DNA of 25,051 bases from an uncultured bacterium (GCA_964607485.1 CAZSKP010000057.1:1-25051), one strand, 5' to 3'; positions 6,940-24,309 are shown, numbered from the stretch's first letter. Numbers and translations are program-made. The notes: generated by a model not told the origin, from the sequence alone.

Positions 6940-7731
6940 ATGTCTGATAGGAACTTCATCATCGAAGAACAAGGTCACATATGCAAGATCACGATCAATC
7001 GCGCTGACAGAAGGAATTCGTTCACGCTGGACATGTGGAAGGAATTCACGGAGACCATGCACGGACTGAACGAAAAAGAAGACATTCGGGTGGTGATCAT
7101 CAGGGGCGCAGGAGACAAAGCGTTCTCATCCGGCATCGATCTCGCAGAACTTGCCTCCACAGGCAGGTCCATTACCGACCCCACGGCATGGGAACAGATC
7201 GGCATCGAGAAGGCCATGCACAGCATCACCGAATTCCGTTATCCCGTCATCGGCATGATCAATGGATATGCAATTGCCGGCGGCTGCGAGCTGGCGCTTC
7301 ACTGTGATATTCAGATCGCCTCCGACACGGCGCGCTTCGCGATGCCGCTCGCAAAGATAGGCCTGATGGTTCCCTTTCCCCTCGCACAGCGCCTGATTAA
7401 CGCCGCGGGCGTCACGTTCGCGCGCGAAATGCTCTATACCGGCAGGATGGTATCGGCCGCCGAAGCACACCGTATAGGCATGATCAACGAAGTAGTTCCC
7501 CAGGCCGACCTCGAAGCCCGCGTGCAGGCTGTCGCCGGAGAAATAGCGGGGAATGCGCCGCTTTCGCTCGAAGGGATGAAGCAAACGTTCGCGCGGTGTT
7601 TCGCCCACGAAAAGGAAATTGCATACGACGACCTGCGCAAGTACATGGCCCGTTGCCTCGCGAGTGAAGACGTCATCGAAGGTGTTTCGGCGTTCTTGCA
7701 GCGTCGCAAACCAGAGTTCAAGGGAAAATGA
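6940..7731 (+). CDS. Enoyl-CoA hydratase/isomerase (crotonase) family protein
   Basis: ITINRADRRNS, GAGDKAFSSGIDL, PVIGMINGYAIAGGCELAL and EGVSAFLQRRKPEFKGK. GGAGG RBS. Confidence 0.92.
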   Translation: MSDRNFIIEEQGHICKITINRADRRNSFTLDMWKEFTETMHGLNEKEDIRVVIIRGAGDKAFSSGIDLAELASTGRSITDPTAWEQIGIEKAMHSITEFRYPVIGMINGYAIAGGCELALHCDIQIASDTARFAMPLAKIGLMVPFPLAQRLINAAGVTFAREMLYTGRMVSAAEAHRIGMINEVVPQADLEARVQAVAGEIAGNAPLSLEGMKQTFARCFAHEKEIAYDDLRKYMARCLASEDVIEGVSAFLQRRKPEFKGK

Positions 7732-7782
7732 GTAAGAGCACGAAAACGTGTTGTTGCCGAACAGGCTTGCAGGAGGTATTCA

Positions 7783-8799
7783 ATGCATCCAGCGTTAAAG
7801 ACTCCCATCTGCGAACTGCTGGGAATCGAGAAACCGATTGTCCAGGCCGGCATGGGCTTTGTGGCGCGATCCGAGTTGGCCGCCGCGGTATCGAACGCAG
7901 GCGGGCTGGGCGTCATCGGCGCGGCGTTCCTTACGCTCGACCAACTACGTGAGGAAATACACAAGACAAGGGGCATGACCGACAAACCCTTTGGGGTAGA
8001 TATCCTGTTTGCGACGTACGGCAGACCTTCGCCGGATCCGAGGATCGAAGAATTCACCGATGAGGTCAGAAGACAGATTGATATCGTGTTGGAAGAACGT
8101 GTTCCGATACTTGCATCGGGACTCGGGAATCCCGCCCCTGTTGTGCCGGAAGCGCACGACCTGGGAATAAAGGTGATCTCGCTCGTGGGAAACACGAAGA
8201 ACGCAAAGCGAGTGGCGGCGGGAGGCGTCGATGTCATTGTTGCGCAGGGGTACGATGGCGGCGGGCATACCGGCAGGGTGGGGACATTCACCGTCGTGCC
8301 CGCCGTAGTGGATTGCGTCGAACAGCCTGTGCTCGCGGCGGGCGGACTCGCCGACGGGCGCGGTCTTGTCGCCGCGATCGCATTGGGAGCTGTCGGCATA
8401 TGGATGGGCACCCGATTTGTAGCCAGCAAGGAGGCTTTCGCCCACGTCAATTACAAGAATAAGATTGCAGAAATCGACGACGAGGGAACTACACGAACGC
8501 GTTGCTTCACGGGCAAGCCGTGCCGGGTCATCAAGAACAAGACGACCGCGGAATGGGAAACCCGCGACGCCGAAATAGAGCCCTTCCCGATTCAAATTGG
8601 GAAAATAAGTGAATACATAGGGGAAAACGTATACGAGGCTTCCCGTTTGCACGGCAGAATTGAAATCGGTTCCTGCGCCGCGGGCCAGTCATCCGCACTG
8701 ATTCATGGCGTCAAGAGCGCTGGCGAGATTGTGAACGAGATCATGGCCGAAGCCGACGAAATTCTGGAGCAATTGACGCATCAGAGGCTCACACCTTGA
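7783..8799 (+). CDS. Nitronate monooxygenase / FabK-like FMN-dependent oxidoreductase
   Basis: LKTPICELLGIEKPIVQAGMG, SNAGGLGVIG, AQGYDGGGHTG, PVLAAGGLADGRG and WMGTRF. AGGAGG RBS. Confidence 0.9.
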   Translation: MHPALKTPICELLGIEKPIVQAGMGFVARSELAAAVSNAGGLGVIGAAFLTLDQLREEIHKTRGMTDKPFGVDILFATYGRPSPDPRIEEFTDEVRRQIDIVLEERVPILASGLGNPAPVVPEAHDLGIKVISLVGNTKNAKRVAAGGVDVIVAQGYDGGGHTGRVGTFTVVPAVVDCVEQPVLAAGGLADGRGLVAAIALGAVGIWMGTRFVASKEAFAHVNYKNKIAEIDDEGTTRTRCFTGKPCRVIKNKTTAEWETRDAEIEPFPIQIGKISEYIGENVYEASRLHGRIEIGSCAAGQSSALIHGVKSAGEIVNEIMAEADEILEQLTHQRLTP

Positions 8800-8937
8800 C
8801 GCCGCGCTGCCCGAATGAAGGGTCTTGAATTTCCCAAAGTTTTGTCATTTCTGTGGAAACAGGAATTGAGAATCTTCCGGCGAAGTTCATTCGGGCAACA
8901 GTCAGTTGAAATGTGAGCCAAGAGCAGGAGAATTGTT

Positions 8938-10500
8938 ATGGCACGGACATTCATTGCAGAACGACTGATAAACGTAGCTGAATCGAACGCGGATAAGCTT
9001 GCAGTCACCTTCGAGCGGGACTCGTTCACTTTTCAACAACTCCTCTCACGCGTCAATCAGCTCGTGAACGCCCTGGACGGTCTCGGAATCCGAAAGGGGG
9101 ATCGTGTCGCGATCCTCTCCCAGAACTGTCATCAATACAGGGAGCTGTTCTGGGCCGTCGCGCTGGGCGGTTTCATGATTGTTCCCGTGAACTATCGGCT
9201 GGCTCCGCGCGAGATTTCGTATATCCTCAATGACTCCGAATCGGTTGCCCTTCTCTTATCCGACGAGTATTCGCTTCTCGTTGACTCCATACGCGGGAAC
9301 CTGCGCACCGTCAGGCATTTCGTCGGAATACAAACCAAATCTGAAGAGCTCACCGACTACGAAGCATTGCTCAGTGAAAACTCTGATGCAATGTCTCGCA
9401 GCCTCCCGTCACCCGACGATTTGCTTTGGCTCCTGTACACAAGTGGCACGACCGGTCTTCCCAAGGGCGCCATGCACACGCACCGCAGCGTCACGGCGCT
9501 TGTCGATATGGCCGTAAACAACTTCGAGTTAGGCGAGGAGACTCGTTCGCTTGTTGTCACACCCTTCTATGCGCTCAGCGGCGGCGGATGGGACTCGATC
9601 TGTTCATGCATGGGAAGCATGACGGTCATACTCCGCAACTTCAATCCTGTTGACGTGCTCGAGGCGATTCAGAATTTTCGCATCACCGACGTTCATCTCG
9701 TTCCCGTTATGATCAACTTCATTGTCAATTGTCCGGACTTCGGGCAGTACGACATCTCCAGTCTCAAGCGAATCACGTACGGGGCGTCCCCCATGCCGCC
9801 GGAACTGATGAAAAGGGCCATGGAACGTATCGGGCCGATATTCATCCAGGATTACGGCTGTGCCGAGGGTGGACTCATGACAGTGCTGCCTGAATCCGAA
9901 CACGCGGTCGAAGGACCGGGAGAAAAGACTCGGCGACTTGCCTCCTGCGGAAAGGGGCTGCCTGAGCTGGACGTGCGGGTGCTGAACGAACAAGGCCGCG
10001 ACGTGGCGCCTGGCGAAGTGGGCGAACTCACGGTCAAAGGCGACACCGTGATGAAGGGCTACTGGAACATGCCCGAGGCAACGGCCGAGGTCCTGAAAGA
10101 TGGCAGATTCCATACCGGCGACCTTGCCACCGTTGACGAGGAAGGTTTCATATACATTGTCGATCGGAAAAAAGATATGATCATCAGCGGCGGGGCCAAC
10201 ATCTATCCGCGCGAGGTCGAGGACGTTCTCTATGCGCATCCCGCCGTCCTGGAGGCGGCGGTCATCGGCGTCCCGGATGATGAGTGGGGCGAGAACGCGA
10301 AGGCGCTGGTGGTCCTCAAGTCCGGAGCCGGTTGCACCGAGAATGAGATCATCGAACACTGCAAAGCCAACCTTGCAAGCTACAAGAAGCCTAAGAGTGT
10401 CGAATTCGTCGATTCCCTTCCGCGGAACCCGACCGGGAAGGTGCTGAAGCGGGTACTTCGCGAGAAGTACTGGGCTGGCAAAGACAGGCAAGTTCATTGA
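8938..10500 (+). CDS. Acyl-CoA synthetase (AMP-forming), long-chain-fatty-acid--CoA ligase family
   Basis: YTSGTTGLPKG, FHTGDLA, DRKKDMIISGGANIYP and LPRNPTGKVLKR. AGGAG RBS. Confidence 0.92.
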   Translation: MARTFIAERLINVAESNADKLAVTFERDSFTFQQLLSRVNQLVNALDGLGIRKGDRVAILSQNCHQYRELFWAVALGGFMIVPVNYRLAPREISYILNDSESVALLLSDEYSLLVDSIRGNLRTVRHFVGIQTKSEELTDYEALLSENSDAMSRSLPSPDDLLWLLYTSGTTGLPKGAMHTHRSVTALVDMAVNNFELGEETRSLVVTPFYALSGGGWDSICSCMGSMTVILRNFNPVDVLEAIQNFRITDVHLVPVMINFIVNCPDFGQYDISSLKRITYGASPMPPELMKRAMERIGPIFIQDYGCAEGGLMTVLPESEHAVEGPGEKTRRLASCGKGLPELDVRVLNEQGRDVAPGEVGELTVKGDTVMKGYWNMPEATAEVLKDGRFHTGDLATVDEEGFIYIVDRKKDMIISGGANIYPREVEDVLYAHPAVLEAAVIGVPDDEWGENAKALVVLKSGAGCTENEIIEHCKANLASYKKPKSVEFVDSLPRNPTGKVLKRVLREKYWAGKDRQVH

Positions 10501-10712
10501 CAAAGCGAATCCCATTCAACAGGCATGTGCGGATGACGAAGTCTGTGTAATGTTCGTGCCAACGACAAGGGCGTCGGTCGCAGATGCAGCCCTCCGGCCC
10601 GAAGGACCTTCTTTCGATCCCCAAGAGTGAAGGCTCCACCCATCCAACCTTTCGAATATTTTTCTTAGGAATTGAAGAATCCGTTCTTAATTCATCACGT
10701 ATCTGTTCGGCG

Positions 10713-10898
10713 GACTATCCATAGAAGTTGGCAGGTGAGATCAGACATTTTGTGTCTTACCACAGTGCGGAACTCTTTCATGAGGCTCTTGGAAACGAGA
10801 CGCCTGATGATGTATACTCTAACGAAAACGAAAAGACACTGGCAGAGGGCGTATTGCTCAGGCAGCAGACCCTCGCTCGACGGAGCGAGAATCGGAGC
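10713..10898 (+). mobile_element. Degenerate remnant of the C-terminus of an IS3/IS481-type DDE transposase
   Basis: The frame reads DYP*KLAGEIRHFVSYHSAELFHEALGNETPDDVY...LLRQQTLARRSENRS. This resembles the integrase-core tail pattern PWELExEIxxFVxYYNxxRYHEALGNVTPxDVY...LKxxTLxRR, with TAG where Trp (TGG) is expected. Confidence 0.6.
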
Positions 10899-10937
10899 AA
10901 TGACTATAGTGTTGCGGTTCATTCAAGGAGATTCGAA

Positions 10938-12449
10938 ATGGGAACTGAAATGAACGTAGGCTTCATGCTGACTCGAAGGGCCTTATTGAGTCCTGAAAAG
11001 ACAGGCTTGGTCTGTGAGGGAATCCGCCGCACATTCTCTCAGATGAACACCCGCGCCAATCAACTGGCCAACGCCATGACGGCCATGGGAATCAAGAGAG
11101 GCGACCGCGTGGGAGTCCTGGCCTTCAACGAGGCAGAATACTACGACCTGTTTTTCGGTCTTGGAAAGATCGGAGCCATCTTGGTCGCGGTAAGCTACCG
11201 TCTGGCCGGGCCGGAAGTCCAGTACATTCTCACGGACAGCAGTCCGAAGGCGCTGGTCTTCAGCCCGGAATTCGTCGACCTTGTGGATTCGATTCGGAAT
11301 GATATTCCGGCCAAGAAACTGATCGCCATCATGGATAATCCACCCGACTGGGCACAGTCATACGAATCGCTGATCGGCGCGGCTTCCGCTGATGAGCCGG
11401 AGTTGGTGGGGGAAAACGACGATACACTGACCATCCTGTACACGTCCGGAACCACTGGGCGACCCAAAGGTGCCGAGTTGACGCACGCTTATTACTTTTG
11501 GAGTAACGTTAATATCCACTCCACTATTCCCGAATTCAGCGAATCGATCTTGATCGCTCTGCCGCTGTTTCACATTGGCGCCTTGGCTGGGCCGCCCCTG
11601 TGCGTTCACAACGGTGCTCGCTCTATTCTGCTCAGGACATTCGATCCCACGCGTTTCCTGGAACTGATCCAAGAAGAAAAGGTAAACGCATTCGGTTCGG
11701 TGCCGGCTTTGCTCATGTTCCTCAAGTCTGTGCCCGATTTCGAAAAATACGATTGGAGTTCGGTCAAGGTGATTCTGGTGTACGCCGCCCCGGTGCCGGT
11801 CACCCTGCTCAACGAGTATGAGGAGGCCGGGATTGAAGTACGACAGTTATACGGCATGACCGAATGCAATACCGGCACTGTGCTGGATGGCACACACGCG
11901 CACAAGAAGGCGGGGTCTTGCGGCCGACCGTTCATCCATACCGAAATTCGACTGGTCGACATGGAAAATAATGACGTGCCCGTGGGAGAAACCGGTGAGG
12001 TCTTGATGAGGGCTCCCAATGTGATGAAAGGCTACTGGAATCGCCCCGAGGACACCGCCGCGACTATTGTGGACGGCTGGCTCCACAGCGGGGACATAGC
12101 CCGTATGGATGAAGATGGCTTCTTTTACATCATGGATCGCAAGAAAGACATGATCATTTCAGGTGGCGAAAACATATATCCGGCCGAAATCGAGGACAGG
12201 CTGTTGGCCCACCCGGCCATCGTGGATGTGGGCGTGATCGGTTATGCCCACGAAAGATGGGGTGAGGCGGTCAAAGCGGTAGTGGTCTTGCGTGAAGGGC
12301 ATTCATTGACCCAGGAGGAGCTGATCGAATGGTGCCACGGCAAGATCGGACGGTTCAAGATCCCCAAGGCCGTAGTGTTCGTGGACAGCCTCCCCCGCAC
12401 GCCGACTGGCAAGATTCTTAAGCGCGTTTTGCGAGAGGAATACGGCTAG
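10938..12449 (+). CDS. Acyl-CoA synthetase (AMP-forming), long-chain-fatty-acid--CoA ligase / MenE-like
   Basis: YTSGTTGRPKG, PLFHIGAL, QLYGMTE, GWLHSGD and LPRTPTGKILKR. Start moved to ATG 10938 behind AAGGAG (10925-10930) because the upstream 70 codons are not ligase-like. Confidence 0.92.
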   Translation: MGTEMNVGFMLTRRALLSPEKTGLVCEGIRRTFSQMNTRANQLANAMTAMGIKRGDRVGVLAFNEAEYYDLFFGLGKIGAILVAVSYRLAGPEVQYILTDSSPKALVFSPEFVDLVDSIRNDIPAKKLIAIMDNPPDWAQSYESLIGAASADEPELVGENDDTLTILYTSGTTGRPKGAELTHAYYFWSNVNIHSTIPEFSESILIALPLFHIGALAGPPLCVHNGARSILLRTFDPTRFLELIQEEKVNAFGSVPALLMFLKSVPDFEKYDWSSVKVILVYAAPVPVTLLNEYEEAGIEVRQLYGMTECNTGTVLDGTHAHKKAGSCGRPFIHTEIRLVDMENNDVPVGETGEVLMRAPNVMKGYWNRPEDTAATIVDGWLHSGDIARMDEDGFFYIMDRKKDMIISGGENIYPAEIEDRLLAHPAIVDVGVIGYAHERWGEAVKAVVVLREGHSLTQEELIEWCHGKIGRFKIPKAVVFVDSLPRTPTGKILKRVLREEYG

Positions 12450-14219: not shown

Positions 14220-15590
14220 TTATTCAAATGGTTCGTGCTTGGTTTTCCCGGGAGGCTCGATGCCAAGGCGCTTCATCTTGCGCCACAAGGTGGTCTTGTG
14301 CATGCCGAGTTCGCGGGCGGCGGCCGCACGGTTCCAGTTGTGCCGCTGGAGGCATTCTCTTATGAAATGCGCCTCGATCTCTTGCAGGTTTGCCGCGCTC
14401 GGCGAGGACAGGTCCCGGCTACTTTCCGGGCGGAGATGCTGAGGCAGATGCTCGGGCAAGATCACCCCGTTACGGCACAGGACGAAGGCGTGTTCGATGA
14501 TGTTTTCGAGCTCGCGTACGTTGCCGGGAAAATCGTGGTTCATGAGGATCGTCAATACCTCGGGCGACACGCCGGCGATATCCTTCCCGCGGACACGGTT
14601 GAACCGCGCTATGAGATGGTCGAGCAGGAGCGGGATGTCCTCCATGCGCTCGCGCAGTGGCGGTAGCGTGAGCTTGACGACGTTTATTCGATAGTACAGG
14701 TCCTGCCGAAACGTCCCTTTCTCCACAAGCTCGCCAAGGTTCTTGTGCGTTGCCGCCACGACGCGCACGTTTGCGACCACCGGCTTCGTGCCGCCCAGCG
14801 GTTCGTACGTCTTATCCTGCAACACCCGGAGTAGTCTTATCTGCAAGGCGGGAGACACATCCCCGACCTCGTCGAGAAAGACGGTGCCGCCTTCCGCCAG
14901 GGCGAAACGGCCCGGCTTGTCCTTCTTCGCATCCGTAAACGCGCCCGCTTTGTGTCCGAACAATTCCGATTCCAGCAGCGTGTCGGGCAGAGCGCCGCAG
15001 TTCACGGTTACCATCGGCTTCTTTCGGCGAGGGCTCAGGTTGTGTATAGCTCTGGCGAACAGCTCTTTGCCTGTTCCGCTTTCGCCCTCGATGAGCACCG
15101 TACTGTCGCTTTCGGCCACCTCGGGCAGAATATCGAAGAGCGCCTGCATCTTGTGGTTCTTGCTTATGATGTCCGCGAAGGTGTATTTCCGCGTGAGCTG
15201 CTTGCGGAGGTCTTCCACCACGGTGAGGTCGCGAAATGTCTCGACGCCACCGATTGTGTGGCCGGATTCGTCTTTCAGCAGCGCGGTCGAGATGCTGATG
15301 GGAATGCGCTCGCCCTCGGCGGTTATGATGTACACGGCCTTGTTGACTATAGGGCGACTGGTCTCCAGCGTCTGCCTCAGGGCGCAGTCGCTCTCGCAGA
15401 TGCTCGCCTTGAATACATCGCAGCAGCGGCGTCCGACAGCTTCCTCCCGCGGAATGCCGGTTATCTCTTCGGCCGCGCGATTGAACGACGTGATGCGCCA
15501 GTCGTCATCCACCGTGAACACGCCGTCGGCGATGCTGTCAAGGATGATGTCTCGCTCTTTCTTTCCTGCCAGACGATTCTCGCTTTGCAT
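14220..15590 (-). CDS. PAS-domain sigma54-dependent transcriptional activator (Fis-type HTH), OrpR-like
   Basis: N-terminal PAS (ILDSIADGVFTVD...FNRAAEEITG) with C-x8-C-x3-C. AAA+ motifs GESGTGKE, ESELFGH, GAFTDA, FLDEVGD, FRQDLYYRINV and PGNVRELEN. HTH AAARELGMHKTTLWRKMK. Confidence 0.93.
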   Translation of the reverse strand: MQSENRLAGKKERDIILDSIADGVFTVDDDWRITSFNRAAEEITGIPREEAVGRRCCDVFKASICESDCALRQTLETSRPIVNKAVYIITAEGERIPISISTALLKDESGHTIGGVETFRDLTVVEDLRKQLTRKYTFADIISKNHKMQALFDILPEVAESDSTVLIEGESGTGKELFARAIHNLSPRRKKPMVTVNCGALPDTLLESELFGHKAGAFTDAKKDKPGRFALAEGGTVFLDEVGDVSPALQIRLLRVLQDKTYEPLGGTKPVVANVRVVAATHKNLGELVEKGTFRQDLYYRINVVKLTLPPLRERMEDIPLLLDHLIARFNRVRGKDIAGVSPEVLTILMNHDFPGNVRELENIIEHAFVLCRNGVILPEHLPQHLRPESSRDLSSPSAANLQEIEAHFIRECLQRHNWNRAAAARELGMHKTTLWRKMKRLGIEPPGKTKHEPFE

Positions 15591-15790: not shown

Positions 15791-15807
15791 TGGCATGAGA
15801 GATGCCA
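15791..15807 (+). promoter_or_regulatory. sigma54 (-24/-12) promoter of the ORP-like operon
   Basis: TGGCATGAGAGATGC has the exact GG-N10-GC spacing, about 27 nt before the first start codon, and is divergent from a sigma54 activator. Confidence 0.8.
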
Positions 15808-15832
15808 TATAAGGCAAGGGAGGCGGACAGAA

Positions 15833-16243
15833 GTGAAAGTGGCAATTCCAATCTGGCAGTCAAGAGTCTCGCCGGTGTTCGACTCGGCCGAGCGTTTGCT
15901 GGTGTTGGATGTCGAGTATGGCCGCGAGCTGTCACGGGTCGAGCGGCCGCTTGCCGGAGTGCCTCCCACGAGGCGGGCGAGGCACCTGAGCGAACTTGGC
16001 GTGGAAGTGCTCTTGTGTGGGGCGATCTCGCGGCCGGTCGCGCAGATGATGGCGGCGAGCGGTATCCAGGTGATCCCCTGGGTATCGGGGGATGTCGACG
16101 ATCTCGTCGCCTGGTATCTCGACGGAAGACCGCTCGAAAGGCGCTTTCTGATGCCCGGATGCGGCCACAGGAATCGATTTCGGGGAAGTTGTCGGCGGGG
16201 TCGCGCCAGGCACTGGGCAAATTATCCGGAGGAATACGTATGA
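15833..16243 (+). CDS. NifB/NifX family (dinitrogenase FeMo-cofactor biosynthesis domain) protein
   Basis: MKVAIPIWQSRVSPVFDSAERLLV...LGVEVLLCGAISRP...GIQVIPWVSGDV...FLMPGC. GGGAGG RBS. Confidence 0.85.
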   Translation: MKVAIPIWQSRVSPVFDSAERLLVLDVEYGRELSRVERPLAGVPPTRRARHLSELGVEVLLCGAISRPVAQMMAASGIQVIPWVSGDVDDLVAWYLDGRPLERRFLMPGCGHRNRFRGSCRRGRARHWANYPEEYV

Positions 16244-16602
16244 AGATTGCAGTGACGTCGCAAGGCGAAGACATGGAGAGCCTCGTCGACCCTCGTTTCG
16301 GACGCGCCAGGAGGTTCATGGTGGTTGACACGGAAACGGGAGCCTCAGAGGTGGTGGACAACAGGAAGAACGTCGATGCGGCTCAGGGTGCGGGCATTCA
16401 GGCTGCTCGCAACGTAGCCGACTTGGGGGTTCAGGCGGTCATAACAGGCAACATCGGCCCCAAGGCTTTCTCAGCTCTCCAGGCCGGAGGCATCAGCATT
16501 TACATCGGCGCTGAGGGAACGGTAAAAGGCGCCGTCGAGCAGTTCAAATCAGGCGCCTTGAAGCAAGCAGGCGGAGCAAACGTAGCAGGACATTGGGTAT
16601 AG
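16240..16602 (+). CDS. NifB/NifX family metal-cluster-binding protein, orange protein (ORP)-like
   Basis: MKIAVTSQG...VDPRFGRARRFMVVD...AAQGAGIQAA...VITGNIGPKAF...NVAGHW. The ATG at 16240 has a GGAGG RBS and an ATGA overlap with the upstream gene. The ORF-track extension from 15802 is spurious. Confidence 0.9.
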   Translation: MKIAVTSQGEDMESLVDPRFGRARRFMVVDTETGASEVVDNRKNVDAAQGAGIQAARNVADLGVQAVITGNIGPKAFSALQAGGISIYIGAEGTVKGAVEQFKSGALKQAGGANVAGHWV

Positions 16603-16638
16603 GAGAACTTTGTCGAAGACCGAAGGGAGGTGAGCGGA

Positions 16639-17028
16639 ATGCCAGGTGGTGACAGAACTGGTCCGATGGGGTTCGGCCCGATGACCGGCCGGGCTGCGGG
16701 CTACTGCGCCGGCTTTCCGACGCCCGGGTTCATGAATCCCGTTCCCGGGAGAGGTTTTGGCAGATGGGGACGAGGACGTGGACGCGGCGGCGGACGCGGC
16801 TGGCGAAATTGGTACTATGCCACGGGCTTGCCGGGCTGGGCACGCGCCGGCTGGGGTTTCGGTCCTGCCGTTCCATATGGGGCTCCATACGGGGCTCTCT
16901 ACGAGCCCGCCATCACGCGGGAGCAGGAGATGGAACTACTGCGCGAGCAGGCGAAACACTTCACCGACGCCCTTGAGGACATCAAGAGACGAATCGATGA
17001 ACTGAGTGCCAAAGGGAAGGAAAACTGA
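16639..17028 (+). CDS. DUF5320-family Gly/Arg-rich protein with C-terminal coiled coil
   Basis: MPGGDRTGPMGFGPMTGRAAGYCAG...GRGRGRGGGRGWRNWYYATGLPGW...LREQAKHFTDALEDIKRRIDEL. GGAGG RBS at 16626-16630. Confidence 0.85.
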   Translation: MPGGDRTGPMGFGPMTGRAAGYCAGFPTPGFMNPVPGRGFGRWGRGRGRGGGRGWRNWYYATGLPGWARAGWGFGPAVPYGAPYGALYEPAITREQEMELLREQAKHFTDALEDIKRRIDELSAKGKEN

Positions 17029-17037
17029 CCCATCGCG

Positions 17038-17080
17038 TGCCGTGAGGGAAGGGGTCCGGACGCACCCTTCCCGCACGGCA
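17038..17080. terminator. Strong intergenic stem-loop (terminator, attenuator or mRNA-stabilising hairpin)
   Basis: TGCCGTG-A-GGGAAGGG...CCCTTCCC-G-CACGGCA gives 15 paired bases with one mismatch. It is followed by an A-run rather than a U-run on the sense strand. Confidence 0.6.
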
Positions 17081-17189
17081 AAATTGCAGTCTCGGAGCGT
17101 GTTCCGTCTTGCTATGAAATTCCGCAAAGACGGAGCACGCTCAGGAGCTGCAAATCGGTTATCCGTGATCAGAAGGGGAGGAATAAGAA

Positions 17190-17411
17190 ATGCCGAGAGG
17201 AGATGGAACCGGCCCGAGGGGACAGGGTCCCGGAACGGGCATGGGCCGCGGTCGGGGTCGCGGAGGCGGAATGCCCAGCGGATTCAACCTAGGCCCGGGC
17301 GGCAATTGCGTTTGCCTGCATTGCGGGAATACGATTCCCCACGAGCAGGGTGTTCCATGCAACCAGGTTGTATGTCCCAAGTGCGGGTCCGCAATGTCAA
17401 GACAGAGATGA
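17190..17411 (+). CDS. Small DUF5320-like Gly-rich protein with Cys-rich (zinc-ribbon-like) C-terminus
   Basis: MPRGDGTGPRGQG...GPGGNCVCLHCG...PHEQGVPCNQVVCPKCGSAM. GGAGG RBS. Confidence 0.85.
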   Translation: MPRGDGTGPRGQGPGTGMGRGRGRGGGMPSGFNLGPGGNCVCLHCGNTIPHEQGVPCNQVVCPKCGSAMSRQR

Positions 17412-17414
17412 CAA

Positions 17415-18308
17415 ATGACACGCGATCGAGCTAAGGATGGGGCTTCGAGAATCGCGGTAGCGAGCGGAAAGGGAGGCACCGGCAAAACTACCATAGCCAC
17501 AAACCTTGCCTTCTCGTTGGTCTCCAGAACGCAGCGCGTGCTGTACGTGGATTGCGACGTCGAAGAACCAAATGGGCACATATTCCTGAAACCGACCATA
17601 ACGAGCACGGAACGTGTCGGCGTACCTATTCCCGAGGTTGACGTAGAGTTCTGCACGGCATGCGGCAAGTGCAGCGAGGCGTGCCAATTCAGCGCAATCG
17701 TGTGCATCAAGGACAGCGTCCTCACATTTCCGGAGCTGTGTCACGGCTGCGGGGCATGCATGCTGGCATGCCCTGAAAACGCCATTCGAGAGGTCAGCCG
17801 GGAAATCGGATTTATTGAACAAGGTTCGTCTAATGGCATCGGCTTCATGCATGGGACAATGAAGATAGGCGAGGCGATGTCGGCTCCGCTGATCCGCGCC
17901 GTCAAGCAAACGCTGCCGGTGGACTCGGTCGCGATCCTCGACGCGCCTCCCGGAACTTCGTGCCCGGTCATCGAGGCGGTCAAAGACACTGACTTCGTTG
18001 TTCTCGTGACAGAGCCCACCCCCTTTGGACTGAACGACCTACGGCTGGCCGTGGAGATGGTCCGCGCGTTGGATATCGAGCACGGAGTCGTCATCAACCG
18101 GTGCGACGTGGGCGACGACGAGGTGCGCTCGTACTGTCTCCGCGAGAACGTGCCGCTGCTCTCAGAAATCCCCGACGACCGGAGAATTGCCGAGGCGTAT
18201 TCCCGTGGATACATGGCAATTGAAGCGGTCCCCGAACTCGAACAGAAATTCTTGGAACTGTGGAAGCAGATTCAGAGGCGAATGAACTTGCTCCCTCATC
18301 GATCATGA
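17415..18308 (+). CDS. MinD/CobQ-like P-loop ATPase with inserted 2x[4Fe-4S] ferredoxin domain (Orp3/Orp4 type)
   Basis: ASGKGGTGKTT deviant Walker A, DCDVEEPN, CTACGKCSEAC, CHGCGACMLACP, DAPPGTSCP and VTEPTPFGLNDL. Confidence 0.92.
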   Translation: MTRDRAKDGASRIAVASGKGGTGKTTIATNLAFSLVSRTQRVLYVDCDVEEPNGHIFLKPTITSTERVGVPIPEVDVEFCTACGKCSEACQFSAIVCIKDSVLTFPELCHGCGACMLACPENAIREVSREIGFIEQGSSNGIGFMHGTMKIGEAMSAPLIRAVKQTLPVDSVAILDAPPGTSCPVIEAVKDTDFVVLVTEPTPFGLNDLRLAVEMVRALDIEHGVVINRCDVGDDEVRSYCLRENVPLLSEIPDDRRIAEAYSRGYMAIEAVPELEQKFLELWKQIQRRMNLLPHRS

Positions 18309-20176
18309 AAAAACAGCAAAAAGCGGCGGTTATCTCGGTAATCGTAAACTGCGGGCTAACGCTGACGAAGTTTATCCTTGCATATCTGACCGCCAGCATC
18401 GCACTGCTTGCAGAAGCATATCATTCTTTTGCCGATATTCTTTCCTCCACTGCGGTTCTTTTGGCCATGCGGGCCGACCAGCAAGTCAGCGCTGTTCCGC
18501 AGACAGGCGAAGAAAGTGAGCCTCCCCAAAAACCGAGGGCGAAGATCTTCTCTTCCGGCAACTGGGAAAACAAAGCCGCCCTGGCGATCGGAATACTGCT
18601 GGTTTTGGTTGCTGTCAACATTTTCGGGAGAGCCAGCCAGCAGGCCTCTATCTCGCTCCGCTATCCATTGGCCGCGGCGATAGTCGTCTGCTTTTTGGCG
18701 GTGTGTTCCTACTTCCTCTATCGCTTTGAGGTCTCCGTGGGCAAAGAGACTCAGTCTACCGCCTTGACCGCCGATGCTCATCACGCCAAAACCGATTTGC
18801 TGGCCTCTGTGCTTGTGGTTGCGGCTCTCGTTTCCACCCGGTTTGGAATAGGCGGAGACAGGGTCGCCGCCGCCGTAATAGGCTGCCTCATTTTCGTTAA
18901 TGCCGTCTATGTGCTCGCCCAGGCGCTGCGCTCGTATGTCGCAACTGCAAGGGGGAAAGAACCGTCCCATGAAATCGTTTACGAAGACATTCTGTTTTTC
19001 ATCCTTTATCGCGTCCTCTCGAGAATCGACACAAACATATGGAATCGCCTGAACAAGGTTCCAGGACTCGCGGGGCCAGCGGAATCGGTTAGGCAGAGGG
19101 TCGGTCTCGCGGTTCTTGTCTTTGTGTTGTTCGTCGGCGGATGTGCGTATGCATTATCGGGTCTCTACGTTCTGAAGCCGGGCGAACAGGCGATCGTGCA
19201 ACGTTTTGGAAAGCCTCTCCAGAAGGACCTGCCGGTGGGTCCGGGACTGCATTATCGCCTTCCATGGCCTATCGAGCGCGTAAAGAAGGCCGACGTCGCG
19301 GGCTTCAAGCGCCTCACGGTCGGGTATCAAACCGGCGACCGAAAAGAATTGATACTGTGGACAAACATTCATTATTTGCGAGAATACTCGATTATTACCG
19401 GAGAAGGCCCTTTTCTCGATGTGGCTATGAACGTGCACTATCGAATAACGAATCTCTATGAGTATCTCTACGGCCACGCCGACCCCGAGAACACAGTGGA
19501 AAGAATCTCTTATCAGGTGTTGCGCGAGACCCTCGGAACGAAACCGTTCTTCTCGTCGATTACCACCGGCCGCGATGCGCTGGAACATCTGATGCAAAAG
19601 GAAATCCAGAAGCGCTCCGACGAGATGGGGCTTGGCATACAGATAAAGAATGTGTGCTTCCGCGACTTGCATCCTCCCACTCAGGTAGCCCCCGCCTTTG
19701 AGGATGTCGTCAGCGCTCAGGAAGACTACGAGACATACATTCAGCAGGCAAATGGATACCGGAAGGACTTGTTGCCAAGCGCGAGAGCCCTCGCCGCAAC
19801 AACCAAGAACGATGCCGAAGCTTACCGCAATGCAGTCATAGCCCAGAGCGTTGGCAAGGCAAATGCCTTTTCATTGCAGACGGAAGCCTATCTCAAAGGG
19901 AAAGAACTGAACCAAATGCGGCTGCTGCTCGAAACCCTTGAAGAAGCTCTTTCGAGTGTTCCCAAATATGTCGTCGGCCCAAACAAGGGCGGTGAGAAAC
20001 CGGACCTGTGGTTTTACATGCCCCCGTTAAGTGAAGAATCGCCAGCCAGCGGCCGCCTTCGGAAGATAGAACCTGGCCAAGTTCAAGACAAAGGGAAATC
20101 CAGGATTTCCTCGGAGGAAGATCTGATAGATGCTCTCTTACGATTCCAGCAAAACCGGACAGGGGAGGGGCAATGA
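18305..20176 (+). CDS. hflK: Fusion protein: cation diffusion facilitator (cation efflux) transmembrane domain + HflK-type SPFH domain
   Basis: The N-terminal 6-TM CDF has SIALLAEAYHSFAD and STALTADAHHAKTD. The C-terminal HflK has SGLYVLKPGEQAIVQRFGK...PGLHYRLPWPIE, DLHPPTQVAPAFEDVVSAQED and RLLLETLEEALS. The ATG at 18305 overlaps the upstream stop (ATGA). Confidence 0.88.
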   Translation: MKKQQKAAVISVIVNCGLTLTKFILAYLTASIALLAEAYHSFADILSSTAVLLAMRADQQVSAVPQTGEESEPPQKPRAKIFSSGNWENKAALAIGILLVLVAVNIFGRASQQASISLRYPLAAAIVVCFLAVCSYFLYRFEVSVGKETQSTALTADAHHAKTDLLASVLVVAALVSTRFGIGGDRVAAAVIGCLIFVNAVYVLAQALRSYVATARGKEPSHEIVYEDILFFILYRVLSRIDTNIWNRLNKVPGLAGPAESVRQRVGLAVLVFVLFVGGCAYALSGLYVLKPGEQAIVQRFGKPLQKDLPVGPGLHYRLPWPIERVKKADVAGFKRLTVGYQTGDRKELILWTNIHYLREYSIITGEGPFLDVAMNVHYRITNLYEYLYGHADPENTVERISYQVLRETLGTKPFFSSITTGRDALEHLMQKEIQKRSDEMGLGIQIKNVCFRDLHPPTQVAPAFEDVVSAQEDYETYIQQANGYRKDLLPSARALAATTKNDAEAYRNAVIAQSVGKANAFSLQTEAYLKGKELNQMRLLLETLEEALSSVPKYVVGPNKGGEKPDLWFYMPPLSEESPASGRLRKIEPGQVQDKGKSRISSEEDLIDALLRFQQNRTGEGQ

Positions 20177-21075
20177 AACGGTTAGCCATCTTGATTGTGG
20201 CAGTTGCGGTCAGTCTCGCAGTCATCGCGGCGTTTTTTCACACGGTGGATGAATCAGAGTATGTCGTGGTGACGCAGTTCGGCGACCCGGTGAAAACGAT
20301 TAAGAAGGCCGGGCTCCACCGAAAGCTTCCCTGGCAAACGGTCAATCGCTTCGACAGGCGGATGCAGCTCTATGAAACACCGATGGTCGAATACCTCACC
20401 GGCGACAAGAAGAATGTAGTTCTTCAAGCATTCGTGTGTTGGCGCATAGATGATCCGCTGGAGTTCTTCCGCGCCGTGAGGACATTCGAAAGCGCGACCC
20501 AGAAACTTGACGATCTCATCTGCGCATCAATAGGCGCCAAGCTGGGTGATTACGAAATGTCCAACCTCATCTCGGTCAACGAGGATGAAGTGAGAATTCC
20601 CGAGATGGAGGAACTCATAGCGACGGAAGTGAATAGCAAGACACAAGAGGGGTACGGTATCGCAGTGGCCCGGGTCGGAATATCGCGACTTGCACTGCCG
20701 GAGGATAACGCTAGGAGCGTTTACAAGAGGATGGAGGCGGAACGATCAGCGATCGCGAATGAATATCGTGCTTTAGGGAGAGAAGAGGCGGAAAAGATCA
20801 AATCGCAAGCGGATAGAGAGAAGAGCGACATTATGGCTGAAGCTTACAAACAGGGGCAAATAATCCAGGGTGAAGGCGACGCCGAGGCCGCCCGAATTTA
20901 CACCGACGCCTATTCAAAAGCTCCCGACTTCTTCAAGCTGATTCGAACATTGGAAGCGTACAAGAAAATGCTCAAGCAACAATCCGTCATCGTGATGTCG
21001 GCGGATTCGGATTTGCTTAAGTATTTGAATGGGGCATGCATGACGGAAGACAAGAGGGACGGTGCAAACCCGTGA
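20173..21075 (+). CDS. hflC: HflC-type SPFH/band 7 membrane protein (protease modulator)
   Basis: N-terminal anchor, TVDESEYVVVTQFGDPV, LTGDKKNVV, WRIDDPLEF, VYKRMEAER, GEGDAEAARIY and PDFFKLIRTLEAY. Confidence 0.92.
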   Translation: MKRLAILIVAVAVSLAVIAAFFHTVDESEYVVVTQFGDPVKTIKKAGLHRKLPWQTVNRFDRRMQLYETPMVEYLTGDKKNVVLQAFVCWRIDDPLEFFRAVRTFESATQKLDDLICASIGAKLGDYEMSNLISVNEDEVRIPEMEELIATEVNSKTQEGYGIAVARVGISRLALPEDNARSVYKRMEAERSAIANEYRALGREEAEKIKSQADREKSDIMAEAYKQGQIIQGEGDAEAARIYTDAYSKAPDFFKLIRTLEAYKKMLKQQSVIVMSADSDLLKYLNGACMTEDKRDGANP

Positions 21076-22094
21076 GTCTGTTCGGTTGGAAAAAGGAATT
21101 CTCTTCGGAATTCGCTATGCTCAAAATCATGGGCGGTAAACTCGCGTTGTGGATTTTCGTCCTCGCGGCAATCGCCTACCTGCTGAGTGGAATCTACGTG
21201 GTTCGCGTGAACGAAACGGGAATCCTTAAGAGGTTTGGTCGTATCGTTGATGCGCATGTGGCTCCCGGCTTGCACTACCGTCTTCCGTGGCCGGTGGACA
21301 AAGTCGTGAAAATTTCCACAGGCGAGATTCATCGCTTTCAAACGGGATTCGGCGCAAATCCGGTCGACGTGACCGACTTCGAGCGTCGTTACGGCAGAGT
21401 GGAGAGCAACCCTATTGGTTCCTTTCTCGTGCCCTACTGTATCACCGGCGATAAGAATATCATCCACGTCAAGGTGATCGCTCAGTATAGAATCGACGAC
21501 CCGAAGGCTTACCTGATCGGCTTCAAGGACCCCGAAGGCGCCGTGCTTCAATGTATCCAGTCTGCAATTCTGCGCGCCTTCATTTGCAGAGACGTGGATA
21601 CCGCCCTTACTACGGGCAGGGTCGCCCTTCAGCAGCAGATACTTCGGAGTGTCCAGGACCAGCTGGCTGGGTTGAATGTCGGAATAAGCGTTTTCTCAAC
21701 AGAGATAAAGAATGCAAGGCCACCATCCAGCGTGGCTGAAGCTTTTAAGGATGTAATCAATGCTCGCGAGGAACGCCGGACAATGGTTCACGACGCGCAG
21801 GCTTACCGCAATGAGGTAATTCCCCAGGGCAAGGCAGAGGCGGCTCGGATCTTGAACGATGCCGAGGCATACAAAAAGAAAAAGATAGCCTATGCCCGAG
21901 GTGAATCGCAGCGGTTTGCCATGCTGGCAGACGAATATTCAAAGGACCCGAAAACCACCGGTGAGCGACTGTACTTGGACGCTGTTTCCGAAATTCTGCC
22001 GACGGCCAGGAAAATAATAATCGGGTCGGATGGTGGTCGAGATATCGCACACTTGCGGTTTTTCACTCAGGGAGCAGTTGAGGCCACAAAATGA
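21072..22094 (+). CDS. hflK: Second HflK-type SPFH/band 7 membrane protein
   Basis: YLLSGIYVV, PGLHYRLPWPVDKV, ITGDKNIIHV, QYRIDDP, PPSSVAEAFKDVINARE, ARGESQRF and ERLYLDAV. The likely start is GTG 21072, a GTGA overlap with the hflC stop. Confidence 0.9.
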   Translation: MSLFGWKKEFSSEFAMLKIMGGKLALWIFVLAAIAYLLSGIYVVRVNETGILKRFGRIVDAHVAPGLHYRLPWPVDKVVKISTGEIHRFQTGFGANPVDVTDFERRYGRVESNPIGSFLVPYCITGDKNIIHVKVIAQYRIDDPKAYLIGFKDPEGAVLQCIQSAILRAFICRDVDTALTTGRVALQQQILRSVQDQLAGLNVGISVFSTEIKNARPPSSVAEAFKDVINAREERRTMVHDAQAYRNEVIPQGKAEAARILNDAEAYKKKKIAYARGESQRFAMLADEYSKDPKTTGERLYLDAVSEILPTARKIIIGSDGGRDIAHLRFFTQGAVEATK

Positions 22095-23026
22095 AAGAAT
22101 TGGTTCTCATAAGCGGGAAGGGCGGCACCGGGAAGACGAGCCTTGTAGCGTGCTTCGCCGCACTGGCCGAAAACAAAGTGCTTGCCGATTGCGACGTCGA
22201 TGCGGCGGACCTTCATCTCGTCCTCGATACACGTGTTGGCCACACTGAACCCTTCCAGGGCGGCAAGAAGGCCAGCATCATTGAGGACCTTTGCACCGGC
22301 TGTGGCGAATGCGAGCGAGTGTGCAGGTTTGATGCCGTCTCCATGGATGCCGGCGGGGATAAGAACGTTCCCGGCACTTTTCAGATAGATCCCATCGGAT
22401 GTGAGGGCTGCGGCGTATGTGTGCAGGTGTGCCCGGCCGAGGCAATCGAGTTCAAGGAAGTTGTGAATGGCGAATGGTTCATCTCGGAGACGCGGCACGG
22501 ACCGATGGTCCACGCGCGGCTCGGCATAGCTGAAGGAAATTCCGGCAAGCTCGTTTCATTGGTTCGGAGTCAGGCCCGGGGGATAGCTTTGAAGAAGGAC
22601 TTGGACCTTGTCCTGATCGACGGCCCGCCGGGAATCGGATGCCCGGTGATCGCGTCAATCACCGGGACCGACTTGGTCGTGGCCGTCACCGAACCGACGC
22701 TTTCGGGCCTGCACGACCTCGAGCGTGTCCGACAACTTGCCTCACACTTTGGTATCGCGACCGTCGCATGTATCAACAAATACGATCTTAACCCGGAGAT
22801 ATCGTCACAAATAGAACAGCACTGCAGTGAAACGGGCGTCGAGATTGTCGGCCGCATCCCTTATGACAATGCGGTGACGAGGGCGCAAATCCAGAAGACC
22901 AGCGTGGTCGAGTATTCGAATGGATTCATTTCCCATGAAATAAGACGCATGTGGGAACGCGTCGAGCAACTTTTGGAACGTAACGCAGATGCGCCCAGCC
23001 AACGCTCTGCGCCAACTACATCGTAG
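22091..23026 (+). CDS. Second MinD/CobQ-like P-loop ATPase with 2x[4Fe-4S] ferredoxin domain (Orp3/Orp4 type)
   Basis: ISGKGGTGKTS, ADCDVDAADLHL, CTGCGECERVC, CEGCGVCVQVCP, GNSGKLV, DGPPGIGCPVIAS and VTEPTLSGLHDL. Confidence 0.92.
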   Translation: MKELVLISGKGGTGKTSLVACFAALAENKVLADCDVDAADLHLVLDTRVGHTEPFQGGKKASIIEDLCTGCGECERVCRFDAVSMDAGGDKNVPGTFQIDPIGCEGCGVCVQVCPAEAIEFKEVVNGEWFISETRHGPMVHARLGIAEGNSGKLVSLVRSQARGIALKKDLDLVLIDGPPGIGCPVIASITGTDLVVAVTEPTLSGLHDLERVRQLASHFGIATVACINKYDLNPEISSQIEQHCSETGVEIVGRIPYDNAVTRAQIQKTSVVEYSNGFISHEIRRMWERVEQLLERNADAPSQRSAPTTS

Positions 23027-23045
23027 AGTTTTGAGAGGAGAAGAG

Positions 23046-23945
23046 ATGGAAAAAGAGGCACAGTCATGTGGAAGTTGTGAGAAGAGCGATTGCTCCGCCA
23101 AGGCGCAAAAACCCGATGAGAACTCCGACGATTTTCGCGAGAGGCAGGCGCTGCAGCGGAGGATGTGTCAGGTCAACCACAAGATTCTCGTGCTTTCCGG
23201 CAAGGGAGGAGTCGGCAAGAGCACCGTGGCGGTCAACGTCGCCATCTCGCTCGCGATGGCCGGGAAGAAAGTGGGGCTCCTGGACGTGGACATTCACGGT
23301 CCGAGCATTCCCAAGCTGCTTGGTTTGGAAGACCAACGTCCGACGGTAGTGGAAGGAACCATTTTTCCGACTATTTTCGAGGACAAGCTCAAGGTAATGT
23401 CGCTTGCGTTTTTTCTGCCCCGGCAAGACGACGCCGTCATCTGGAGGGGTCCGCTCAAGATGGGCTTGATAAAGCAGTTTCTCCGGGACGTGGAATGGGG
23501 GAAACTGGACTATCTGATAATCGACTCTCCGCCCGGCACCGGCGACGAACCGCTTTCTGTGGTTCAATTAGTAGGGGACGCATCCGGAGCGGTCGTCGTA
23601 ACAACTCCGCAGGAAATCGCGCTGTCGGACGTGAGAAAGTCGATCAGTTTTTGTCGGACGGTCGGCCTGCGCGTGCTGGGCGTTGTGGAGAACATGAGCG
23701 GTTTCGTCTGCCCCGAATGCGGCGCCCGGACGGAAATCTTTAAATCGGGCGGGGGTGAAAGCATGGCGAAAGAAATGGGCGTGCCGTTCCTGGGCAGAAT
23801 CCCGATCGACCCCGCCATCGTCACGACAAGCGACGACGGCAAACCCTTCTGCCGGCGGTTTGCAGAGACCGAGACCGCCAAGGCCTTTGACCGGGCGGTC
23901 AAACCAATACTCGACATGAGCGAGAAAACAAAGGCAATAGCTTGA
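23046..23945 (+). CDS. mrp: Mrp/NBP35 (ApbC) family Fe-S cluster carrier ATPase
   Basis: SGKGGVGKST, DVDIHGPSIP, VIWRGP, WGKLDYLIIDSPPGTGDE, VTTPQ and VENMSGFVCPECG. Start set at ATG 23046 behind GAGGAG. Confidence 0.93.
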   Translation: MEKEAQSCGSCEKSDCSAKAQKPDENSDDFRERQALQRRMCQVNHKILVLSGKGGVGKSTVAVNVAISLAMAGKKVGLLDVDIHGPSIPKLLGLEDQRPTVVEGTIFPTIFEDKLKVMSLAFFLPRQDDAVIWRGPLKMGLIKQFLRDVEWGKLDYLIIDSPPGTGDEPLSVVQLVGDASGAVVVTTPQEIALSDVRKSISFCRTVGLRVLGVVENMSGFVCPECGARTEIFKSGGGESMAKEMGVPFLGRIPIDPAIVTTSDDGKPFCRRFAETETAKAFDRAVKPILDMSEKTKAIA

Positions 23946-23970: not shown

Positions 23971-24309
23971 ATGAGAATTGCAATTCCAGTTGCAGAAGGC
24001 AGACTCAGCCCGCATTTTGGCCATTGCGAGCAGTTCGCCCTGATCGACGTGGACTCGGAGACCAAAGAAATCACCGGACAACAGATGATCCCGTCGCCCG
24101 ACCATCAGCCCGGACTGCTTCCCCGATGGCTGCATGAGCAGGGAGCGACCATCATCATCGCAGGGGGCATGGGACGCCGGGCGCAGGACCTCTTTGCCGA
24201 AAACGGAATTCGCATTATCATCGGAGCGGCTTCGCAACCACCCGAGGTTGTTGTGAAGGCCTACCTCGAGGGCTCGCTCGAAACGGGCGAGAACATTTGC
24301 GACCACTGA
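23971..24309 (+). CDS. NifB/NifX family metal-cluster-binding protein
   Basis: MRIAIPVAEGRLSPHFGHCEQF...HQPGLLPRWL...IIAGGMGRRAQDLF...GENICDH. Confidence 0.9.
   Translation: MRIAIPVAEGRLSPHFGHCEQFALIDVDSETKEITGQQMIPSPDHQPGLLPRWLHEQGATIIIAGGMGRRAQDLFAENGIRIIIGAASQPPEVVVKAYLEGSLETGENICDH

Follow-up and report, generated by a model that had tools for sequence, protein, structure and literature searches.

What do rings of SPFH proteins such as HflK/C, stomatin, prohibitin and flotillin do with the membrane proteins that they enclose? This question has long been open, and the evidence for clients usually consists of weak or transient contacts. Canonical HflK and HflC form an alternating oligomeric cage around FtsH and are usually encoded as a two-gene hflKC pair. 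Here, we analyze a locus that offers a different view on the problem. It lies in a stretch of 25,051 nucleotides from an uncultured bacterium (GCA_964607485.1, CAZSKP010000057.1:1-25051; the whole stretch is referred to as the window), in which positions 18305–22094 on the plus strand are occupied by three translationally coupled genes: K1, encoding a fusion of a cation diffusion facilitator (CDF) membrane domain with HflK, a gene for HflC, and K2, encoding a plain HflK. In many phyla, these three genes have been passed on together, and they are distinct from housekeeping hflKC. The reading that we prefer, and to which we assign a probability of roughly 0.6, is that the products of the three genes build an HflK/HflC-type SPFH assembly of their own in the membrane, with K1 carrying a working CDF metal-export domain that replaces the short cytoplasmic N-terminus.

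Gene Layout and Domain Content of the Module

The K1 gene (18305–20176, plus strand) encodes 623 amino acids when translated from the ATG at 18305. This codon is part of an ATGA overlap with the upstream gene and was used here in place of the GTG at 18260 that the open reading frame (ORF) lister gives as the start. The protein matches two Pfam domains well above their cut-offs, Cation_efflux (PF01545; 84.6 bits, cut-off 26.6) and Band_7 (64.1 bits, cut-off 23.6), and it is also recognized by the NCBIfam models TIGR01933 for HflK (173.8 bits, cut-off 159.4) and TIGR01297 for CDF proteins (86.1 bits, cut-off 82.35). The gene for the HflC-type subunit (20173–21075, plus strand, 300 amino acids; TIGR01932 201.5 bits, curated cut-off 134.4) is located directly 3′ of K1 and directly 5′ of K2; it overlaps the end of K1 in an ATGA at 20173 and has a ribosome-binding site, GGGGAGGGG. 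K2 (21072–22094, plus strand) reaches 203.2 bits with TIGR01933. Its start is uncertain and may be the GTG at 21072, which overlaps the hflC stop codon, the ATG at 21117, or the ATG at 21036 that yields the maximum ORF. Both HflK-type proteins of the module are thus above the equivalog cut-off of 159.4 bits, while the genome's housekeeping HflK reaches 277.5 bits. The model for enterobacterial HflK (NF008181, cut-off 660 bits) is reached neither by K1 (107.3 bits) nor by K2 (165.8 bits).

Four-base overlaps, ATGA at 18305, 20173 and 22091 and GTGA at 21072, tie together five genes between 17415 and 23026, which are therefore almost certainly co-translated from a single transcript. A preliminary description of this DNA, made from the sequence alone, had reported three consecutive SPFH genes in the order HflK, HflC, HflK, the first of them fused to a cation-efflux domain, and had stated that ftsH, hflX and hfq are absent from the window. 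The curated cut-offs confirm the former, and no ftsH, hflX or hfq was found in the window. The co-occurrence of Cation_efflux and Band_7 in one chain, which had been put forward as a check of the fusion, is likewise evident in K1.

Authenticity and Distribution of the Fusion

As the source is a metagenome-assembled genome, we considered whether K1 might have arisen from a frameshift or by chimeric assembly, or might be a fusion that occurred only once. The contigs of the likely source run include two that join at 18658–18673, within the CDF domain, and the overlap between them comprises just 16 bases. However, relatives with 58–65% identity align continuously over K1 residues 117–123 and thus straight across the joint, which is therefore not a chimera point. 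The stretch is present in four DNA runs, all belonging to one sediment study. Contig pieces from three further samples of this study match parts of K1 without differences, and the pieces 18752–19096 and 19076–19295 span the junction between the two domains and are identical to the sequence analyzed here. Furthermore, the fusion is uninterrupted at 77 additional loci, each time as one reading frame, and also in a plasmid protein from RefSeq. On the basis of this recurrence, the continuous alignments and the matching pieces from other samples, we rejected an artefact, the chance of which we consider practically nil; the fusion is genuine and is neither a frameshift, an assembly error nor a singleton.

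The fusion is by no means confined to the organism studied here. A word-indexed search retrieved 50 proteins, 40 of which contain both Pfam domains, and an exhaustive search yielded 610 cluster representatives (50% identity) at E values up to 1e-30, with both domains present in 134 of the best 150. When species-representative genomes were scanned, 79 related loci were found. The order fusion HflK, HflC, HflK on the same strand is preserved in 72 of them, and the remaining seven run off the contig within the first or second gene, so that no complete locus lacks the plain K2 next to K1. Carriers belong to the Abyssobacteria, Eisenbacteria, Planctomycetota, Chloroflexota, Spirochaetes, NC10/Methylomirabilota, Actinomycetota, Nitrospirota, Desulfobacterales and other groups, and the module is also present in named cultured alphaproteobacteria, for example Allosediminivita pacifica DSM 29329.

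Anatomy of the K1 Protein

An AlphaFold2 model of K1 was calculated from an alignment of 28 sequences (mean predicted local distance difference test score, pLDDT, 74.7; predicted template modelling score, pTM, 0.38). The CDF membrane domain (residues 1–217, encoded at 18305–18955, plus strand) consists of six helices (residues 3–29, 32–62, 87–111, 121–149, 152–179 and 184–217). It is followed by a linker helix (residues 226–249, 18980–19051, plus strand; pLDDT about 60–67) and by a seventh membrane helix (residues 259–284, 19079–19156, plus strand) that corresponds to the anchor helix of HflK. The remainder of the protein (19163–20176, plus strand) represents the HflK ectodomain according to the AlphaFold2 model, profile comparison and Foldseek, and is made up of the SPFH domain (residues 287–456), long coiled helices (462–548), two short C-terminal strands and a tail helix (604–618). 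In CDF proteins, both termini are located inside the cell, and in HflK the N-terminus is inside while the bulk of the protein is outside. Given these topologies, the linker is probably cytoplasmic.

Comparisons with proteins of known structure are in agreement with this division. A family profile matched E. coli HflK (7vhp_E) with an E value of 7e-67 over chain residues 76–348, the match beginning at profile position 266, which is equivalent to residue 76 of 7vhp_E, and it matched FieF (3h90) with an E value of 1.7e-17 over the membrane domain alone (residues 4–208). In a Foldseek search with the K1 model, HflK (7vhq_E) was found with an E value of 1.2e-17 and YiiP (8f6h_B) with a root-mean-square deviation of 2.9 over 208 columns. 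K1 therefore possesses the six-helix fold of a CDF membrane domain, as judged from its modelled helices and the match to YiiP 8f6h_B, and from residues 259–284 onwards it has the membrane helix, SPFH domain, coiled helices and strands that are typical of HflK (compare 7vhp chain E). The cytoplasmic C-terminal domain of CDF proteins (ZT_dimer, PF16916) was not detected in K1 with Pfam or NCBIfam, and the match to the PDB entry stops at FieF residue 208–212. Stand-alone CDF proteins encoded at three of the loci (L075, L040 and L053) do carry a ZT_dimer domain.

At the very C-terminus, K1 bears an acidic tail helix (residues 604–618, window positions 20114–20158) with a conserved motif around SSEEDLIDAL. 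This helix follows a disordered stretch and is found only in the sub-lineage to which the window belongs.

The Putative Transport Site

In FieF, the CDF transport site is formed by the residues D..D in helix 2 and H..D in helix 5. In a pairwise alignment with K1, these columns correspond to His40 and Asp44 in helix 2 (codons within 18422–18436, plus strand) and to His160 and Asp164 in helix 5 (codons within 18782–18796, plus strand). Among 78 fusions, His40 is conserved in 74, Asp44 in 75, His160 in all 78 and Asp164 in 71, and the complete combination HDHD occurs in 67. Mean column identity in the alignment of the fusions (A1) is 48%, placing the HDHD site far above the average column.

It is conceivable that the CDF part no longer transports anything and that, as a large spacer or membrane anchor, it gives the ring its shape. 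The lack of the CDF C-terminal domain would fit such a role, as would the loop between helices 2 and 3, which varies and was modelled with low confidence (pLDDT below 50 at residues 61–82), and the plain K2 next to K1 in every complete locus, which would agree with a structural need to dilute a bulky subunit. On the other hand, the site residues are preserved to a much greater extent (67 of 78) than the average column of the same domain, and the position of the CDF part can be taken by entirely unrelated transporters. An HflK-type domain is found behind a P-type ATPase with CPC and DKTGT motifs in the proteins P0045, P0047 and P0049 and behind an ArsP_1 permease in P0046, P0048 and P0050, for which the domain composition was confirmed. 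At two loci, a P-type ATPase-HflK fusion with the CPC motif is followed by HflC and then by a second HflK (L113:5824-11165 and L114:5734-11143). These were the only full-length fusions in a metagenome scan for ATPase-HflK proteins; the other 78 of the 80 loci retrieved encode plain ATPases because the search patterns had been derived from the ATPase part. A corresponding plasmid search for ArsP_1-HflK fusions with P0048 as the query gave matches to the HflK part only and no record covering 80% of the query. Taken together, it appears rather improbable that the CDF domain is an anchor only, and we favor a functional exporter.

Phylogeny of the Module and Its Relation to FtsH

A phylogenetic tree was calculated for 109 sequences comprising 32 complete modules (picked for diversity from the 72), five housekeeping pairs including that of E. 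coli, and three SPFH outgroup proteins. HflC proteins of the module form one clade (support 100/98, present in 100% of 200 bootstrap trees) that is set apart from the five housekeeping HflC proteins. Three matching sub-lineages recur in K1, K2 and HflC alike, and in no case do the K1 and K2 of one locus branch together, which identifies the HflK copies as old paralogues with a shared inheritance. The deep branching order among K1, K2 and housekeeping HflK is not settled by the tree.

The genome analyzed here (G000, 97.5% complete) also contains an ordinary hflKC pair on contig C36 (HflK 277.5 bits, HflC 211.2 bits). The module is therefore not the sole hflKC of the organism, and its distinctness from the housekeeping pair, for which the preliminary description had suggested an HflK phylogeny, is borne out by the separate HflC clade and by the coexistence of both sets of genes. 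Two ftsH genes are located on contigs C11 and C20, two hflX genes on C19 and C5 and two genes for stand-alone CDF proteins on other contigs; Hfq had no match in this genome. Five other carrier genomes were inspected. A housekeeping pair is present in addition to the module in three of them, and in the other two only module proteins exceed the HflK cut-off.

These findings bear on the possibility that the module is mainly a regulator of FtsH, with the CDF part either sensing metal and rendering proteolysis metal-responsive or representing a transporter that is held or regulated as an FtsH client. In favor of such a role, K1 and K2 exceed the HflK equivalog cut-off, HflC exceeds its own, and two ftsH genes are available in the genome. 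Column 201 of the tree alignment (E. coli HflK residue 193 in the L112 count) is occupied by arginine in 27 of 32 K1 proteins, in four of five housekeeping HflK proteins and in none of 32 K2 proteins, which mostly have threonine in this position. A contact between an HflK arginine, numbered 191, and the periplasmic domain of FtsH has been reported (PMC12048511), and the arginine of column 201 may be related to it. In the L112 count, taken from the RefSeq start, residue 191 is alanine and arginines are located at positions 185 and 193. Since the number 191 given in PMC12048511 does not agree with this count, the difference between K1 and K2 is reported as an observation only. Several points speak against FtsH as the center of the system. 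The housekeeping hflKC pair is retained alongside the module. The HDHD site (67 of 78) and the exchange of the CDF part for a P-type ATPase in the same gene layout fit transport better than sensing. In addition, ftsH was not found within the fetched flanks of any of the 79 CDF-type and two ATPase-type loci; this is weak evidence because hflKC of E. coli is not adjacent to ftsH either. We therefore consider a primary function in FtsH regulation unlikely and retain the dedicated metal-exporting assembly as our working model.

Genomic Neighborhoods and the Link to ORP Genes

The preliminary description had suggested that the assembly serves ORP/Mrp Fe-S and heterometal cluster assembly and that metal-related genes should accompany its homologues. 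All ORFs of the 79 loci were compared with representative queries (flanks of up to 10 kb per side, often shorter), and 100 of 127 ORFs immediately adjacent to the module were scanned with Pfam; the other 27 come mostly from loci that duplicate a listed neighborhood and from L008 and L010, for which the neighbors had been established before. The most frequent neighbor is a parvulin-type isomerase of the PpiD/PrsA/SurA kind (26 of 79 loci; no equivalog model was reached), followed by P-type metal ATPases (12/79), ORP-type genes (11/79, from more than one sub-lineage), FeoB (7/79), an HtrA-like protease (6/79), SCO1 (5/79), PCuAC (3/79) and a full-length CDF protein (3/79). At least one metal-handling gene is present at 29 of the 79 loci. 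As a rough baseline, derived from one genome, each of these neighbor types occurs in 1–3% of random 24-kb windows. An instructive case is the conjugative plasmid NZ_CP018172.1 of Aquibium oceanicum B7 (L201), in which genes for Nramp, a response regulator and a kinase, an IS3-type insertion, the hflK fusion, hflC, hflK and genes for an isomerase and a heavy-metal ATPase follow one another. The fusion, annotated as 'hflK', has 515 amino acids with Cation_efflux at residues 8–198 and Band_7 at residues 243–414. The IS3-type element (HTH_Tnp_1 and rve; L201 5198–6306) is situated between the two-component genes and the module within this metal-handling island. In four loci of the window's sub-lineage (L012, L013, L016 and L017), a gene for a cytidylyltransferase-like protein of 160 amino acids is found directly 3′ of the module.

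In the window, the module is inserted between genes of the ORP type. Upstream of K1, and with its stop overlapping the K1 start, lies a gene for an Orp3/Orp4-like ATPase of the MinD/ParA type with two 4Fe-4S motifs (17415–18308, plus strand; Pfam CbiA, ParA, Fer4). A second such ATPase gene with 4Fe-4S motifs (22091–23026, plus strand; Pfam Fer4, CbiA, ParA) starts within the stop of K2. It is followed by the P-loop part of MrpORP (22989–23945, plus strand; NF041136, 403 bits, model positions 2–256) and by a Nitro_FeMo-Co (Di-Nase) protein that corresponds to the C-terminal portion of MrpORP (23971–24309, plus strand; NF041136 positions 265–365, 134 bits; PF02579), after which a radical SAM gene is encoded. 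The cut-off for two-domain MrpORP (NF041136, 450 bits) is not reached in the window because MrpORP is split into two genes. The Nitro_FeMo-Co gene lies in another frame than the P-loop gene. L008 and L010 show this split as well, and MrpORP is a single ORF of 442–448 amino acids in L029, L033 and L040; the split looks natural rather than the result of a frameshift. Further upstream, the ORP-type row continues with genes for a Nitro_FeMo-Co protein (15802–16602), a DUF5320 protein (16630–17028), both assigned with Pfam, and a 142-residue ORF without a family (17006–17434), all on the plus strand and in the same order in L008 and L010. A divergently transcribed gene (14220–15590, minus strand; Pfam PAS, Sigma54_activat, HTH_8) encodes a sigma-54 activator that is OrpR-like by position and has homologues adjoining the module in L008 and L010. 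A palindromic, sigma-54-like −24/−12 element, TGGCATGAGAGATGC, was found at 15791–15805 (plus strand) by pattern matching; this match is statistically weak on its own, the chance mean being 0.55 and 12 of 100 shuffles giving at least two matches. The window thus contains the set of components described for ORP systems, namely two MinD-like 4Fe-4S ATPases, Nitro_FeMo-Co proteins and a divergent sigma-54 activator. The publication from which the component list was taken reports a MinD-like membrane-binding amphipathic helix for Orp3 and Orp4 and a polar localization of MrpORP (PMC6345978). Positions 713–12449 of the window are occupied by an unrelated metabolic cluster that includes genes for an enolase-superfamily enzyme, an amidohydrolase, three AMP-binding ligases and a B12-binding protein as well as an enoyl-CoA hydratase, an NMO-type oxidoreductase and a cupin-helix-turn-helix regulator.

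Is the module, then, dedicated to the ORP system, supplying metal for, or removing it from, the assembly of ORP/Mrp Fe-S and heterometal clusters? The arrangement in the window, L008 and L010, where the module lies between two Orp3/Orp4-like genes with stops overlapping starts, would certainly fit, and so would the ORP-type genes near the module at eight further loci from other sub-lineages. A membrane-binding helix in Orp3/Orp4 and polar MrpORP, as given in PMC6345978, point in the same direction. Moreover, full CDF proteins that contain ZT_dimer and end in a Nitro_FeMo-Co domain are encoded beside ORP genes and the module in two loci (L040:5081-6496 and L053:6861-8156), and CDF-ZT_dimer-Nitro_FeMo-Co fusions also exist in two archaeal proteins (P0052 and P0053). 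These fusions are a second link between CDF and ORP domains that is independent of adjacency. However, the arrangement between two Orp3/Orp4-like genes is restricted to the window, L008 and L010, and 68 of the 79 loci lack an ORP-type gene within the fetched flanks. In L007, with 60% identity, no ORP gene adjoins the module, and a TIG/dockerin gene and a methyltransferase gene are found instead. In cultured alphaproteobacteria, the module is located beside isomerase, copper-chaperone, P-type ATPase, Nramp or two-component genes. Dedication to ORP clusters is therefore quite improbable as the general purpose of the module. Rather, the presence of ORP genes at 11 of 79 loci and their absence next to the module in L007 show that the ORP connection is a recurrent, lineage-limited use of a much more widely distributed module. 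From the initial proposal of a specialized three-subunit SPFH assembly with a metal transporter in the service of ORP/Mrp cluster assembly, the conserved unit (72 of 79 loci) and the tethered CDF domain remain, and the ORP service has to be given up as a general role.

Proposed Function of the Assembly

We propose that the three proteins would expose their SPFH and coiled-coil parts to the periplasm and that the CDF loops and linker of K1 would be on the cytoplasmic side. As both ends of a CDF membrane domain and the N-terminus of HflK are inside, the seventh helix probably carries the SPFH part of K1 across the membrane. By homology to the HflK/C cage of E. coli, K1 and K2 may share the K positions and alternate with HflC, and the transporter would then be present on only some of the ring positions. 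In this arrangement K2 would dilute the bulky K1 subunit. The ring could confine a divalent-metal exporter (of the Zn, Fe, Mn or Co type) to a particular patch of the membrane, where the exporter might serve local clients or be controlled itself. In the genome studied here and its closest relatives, the module is part of a presumably sigma-54-controlled ORP/Mrp metallocluster operon and would therefore be made together with the membrane-binding Orp3/Orp4-like ATPases. In most other lineages, it is found beside a parvulin-type isomerase, metal ATPases, FeoB or copper chaperones instead.

A number of points weigh against this proposal. All support for it is computational. The CDF part of K1 lacks the C-terminal domain that characterized CDF proteins use for dimer contacts and regulation, and transport is therefore not assured. 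Eleven of the 78 fusions deviate from HDHD (ADHD in four, HGHH in three, HDHN in two, HDHH in one and HDHE in one), and these still have H, N or E at varied positions or are altered in one position. The transported metal cannot be named because no metal-specific CDF model comes near its cut-off with K1, the best scores being 53 bits for MamB, 49 for MntE and 42 for FieF. With a pTM of 0.38, the model does not define the mutual placement of the K1 domains. The SPFH part of K1 does not form one clade (three changes on the tree, 0% of bootstrap trees), and a single K1 clade is not rejected by the approximately unbiased test (p 0.392). The neighbor counts stem from related genomes, are not independent and are compared with a baseline from one genome only. 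Finally, the CDF part was matched in no more than three of nine other genomes of the same family.

On a more speculative note, modules with the layout transporter-HflK, HflC, HflK might be general modular SPFH cages built on a metal exporter that is tethered covalently, be it a CDF protein, a P-type ATPase or ArsP. The periplasmic chamber above the membrane patch would receive the metal, newly exported proteins helped by the parvulin-type isomerase encoded with the module could be metallated or protected there, and in Abyssubacteria-like anaerobes the cytoplasmic face might dock the ORP machinery. We regard this wider scheme as a tentative idea with a small chance of being correct as a whole.

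Whatever its exact role, K1 contains a recognizable client, a metal exporter with a conserved site, that has been fused by evolution to a ring subunit, a design repeated with at least one other transporter class. The module offers structural and transport studies a scaffold-client complex that is stoichiometric by nature, and carriers are available among named, cultured bacteria. With regard to metals, it suggests an unstudied route by which export is targeted to defined sites in the membrane and, in the lineage studied here, it hints at a connection of the poorly understood ORP system with the membrane.

Comparison With Known Systems

The preliminary description had stated that no system with this architecture has been characterized. 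In agreement with this, no paper on a CDF-HflK or any other transporter-SPFH fusion was found in full-text searches, with subscription journals and supplements outside their scope. Operon types of SPFH proteins were surveyed in 2009, and the accessible part of that survey mentions neither transporters nor transporter fusions (PMC2636767).

The closest relative in terms of structure is the HflK/HflC-FtsH complex of E. coli (7vhp, 7wi3, 9cz2, 9paw). Residues about 260–570 of K1 and the K2 protein are of the HflK type, the product of the middle gene is of the HflC type, and the genes are adjacent and coupled. However, the module consists of three genes rather than two, its HflC belongs to a clade separate from the five housekeeping HflC proteins, and an ordinary pair is encoded in addition to it. 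K1 has a six-helix transporter in place of the short cytoplasmic N-terminus of E. coli HflK, and both K1 and K2 are distant from enterobacterial HflK (107 and 166 bits with NF008181, cut-off 660). With YiiP/FieF (3h90, 2qfi, 8f6h, 5vrf), K1 shares the six-helix membrane domain and the four aligned site positions, which are H-D/H-D in K1 and D-D/H-D in FieF. The cytoplasmic C-terminal domain of FieF (ZT_dimer) is replaced in K1 by the linker, the seventh helix and HflK, and no CDF subfamily model is reached. The P-type ATPase-HflK and ArsP_1-HflK fusions resemble K1 in that an HflK-type domain follows a metal transporter and differ from it in the class of this transporter.

With regard to the genetic surroundings, the module is flanked by the same parts that make up the ORP/MrpORP system of Desulfovibrio vulgaris Hildenborough, i.e., MinD-like ATPases, Nitro_FeMo-Co proteins, a Mrp/NBP35 P-loop protein and a sigma-54 activator (PMC6345978). 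The terms HflK, HflC and band 7 do not occur in the accessible part of its description, and MrpORP of the window differs in being split into two genes.

Two further SPFH systems are similar in principle. In the QmcA-YbbJ pair (8z5g), an SPFH ring and a membrane protein devoted to it are likewise encoded in an operon, but this partner is a separately encoded NfeD protein and not a transporter, and the SPFH subfamily is a different one. The complex of aquaporin 1 and stomatin (9zd2), which is among the fold matches of K1, combines an SPFH ring with a membrane transport protein. The association of stomatin with channels is non-covalent, and its ring is a homo-oligomer facing the cytoplasm, whereas in K1 the transporter is part of the scaffold chain itself and the ring should face the periplasm.

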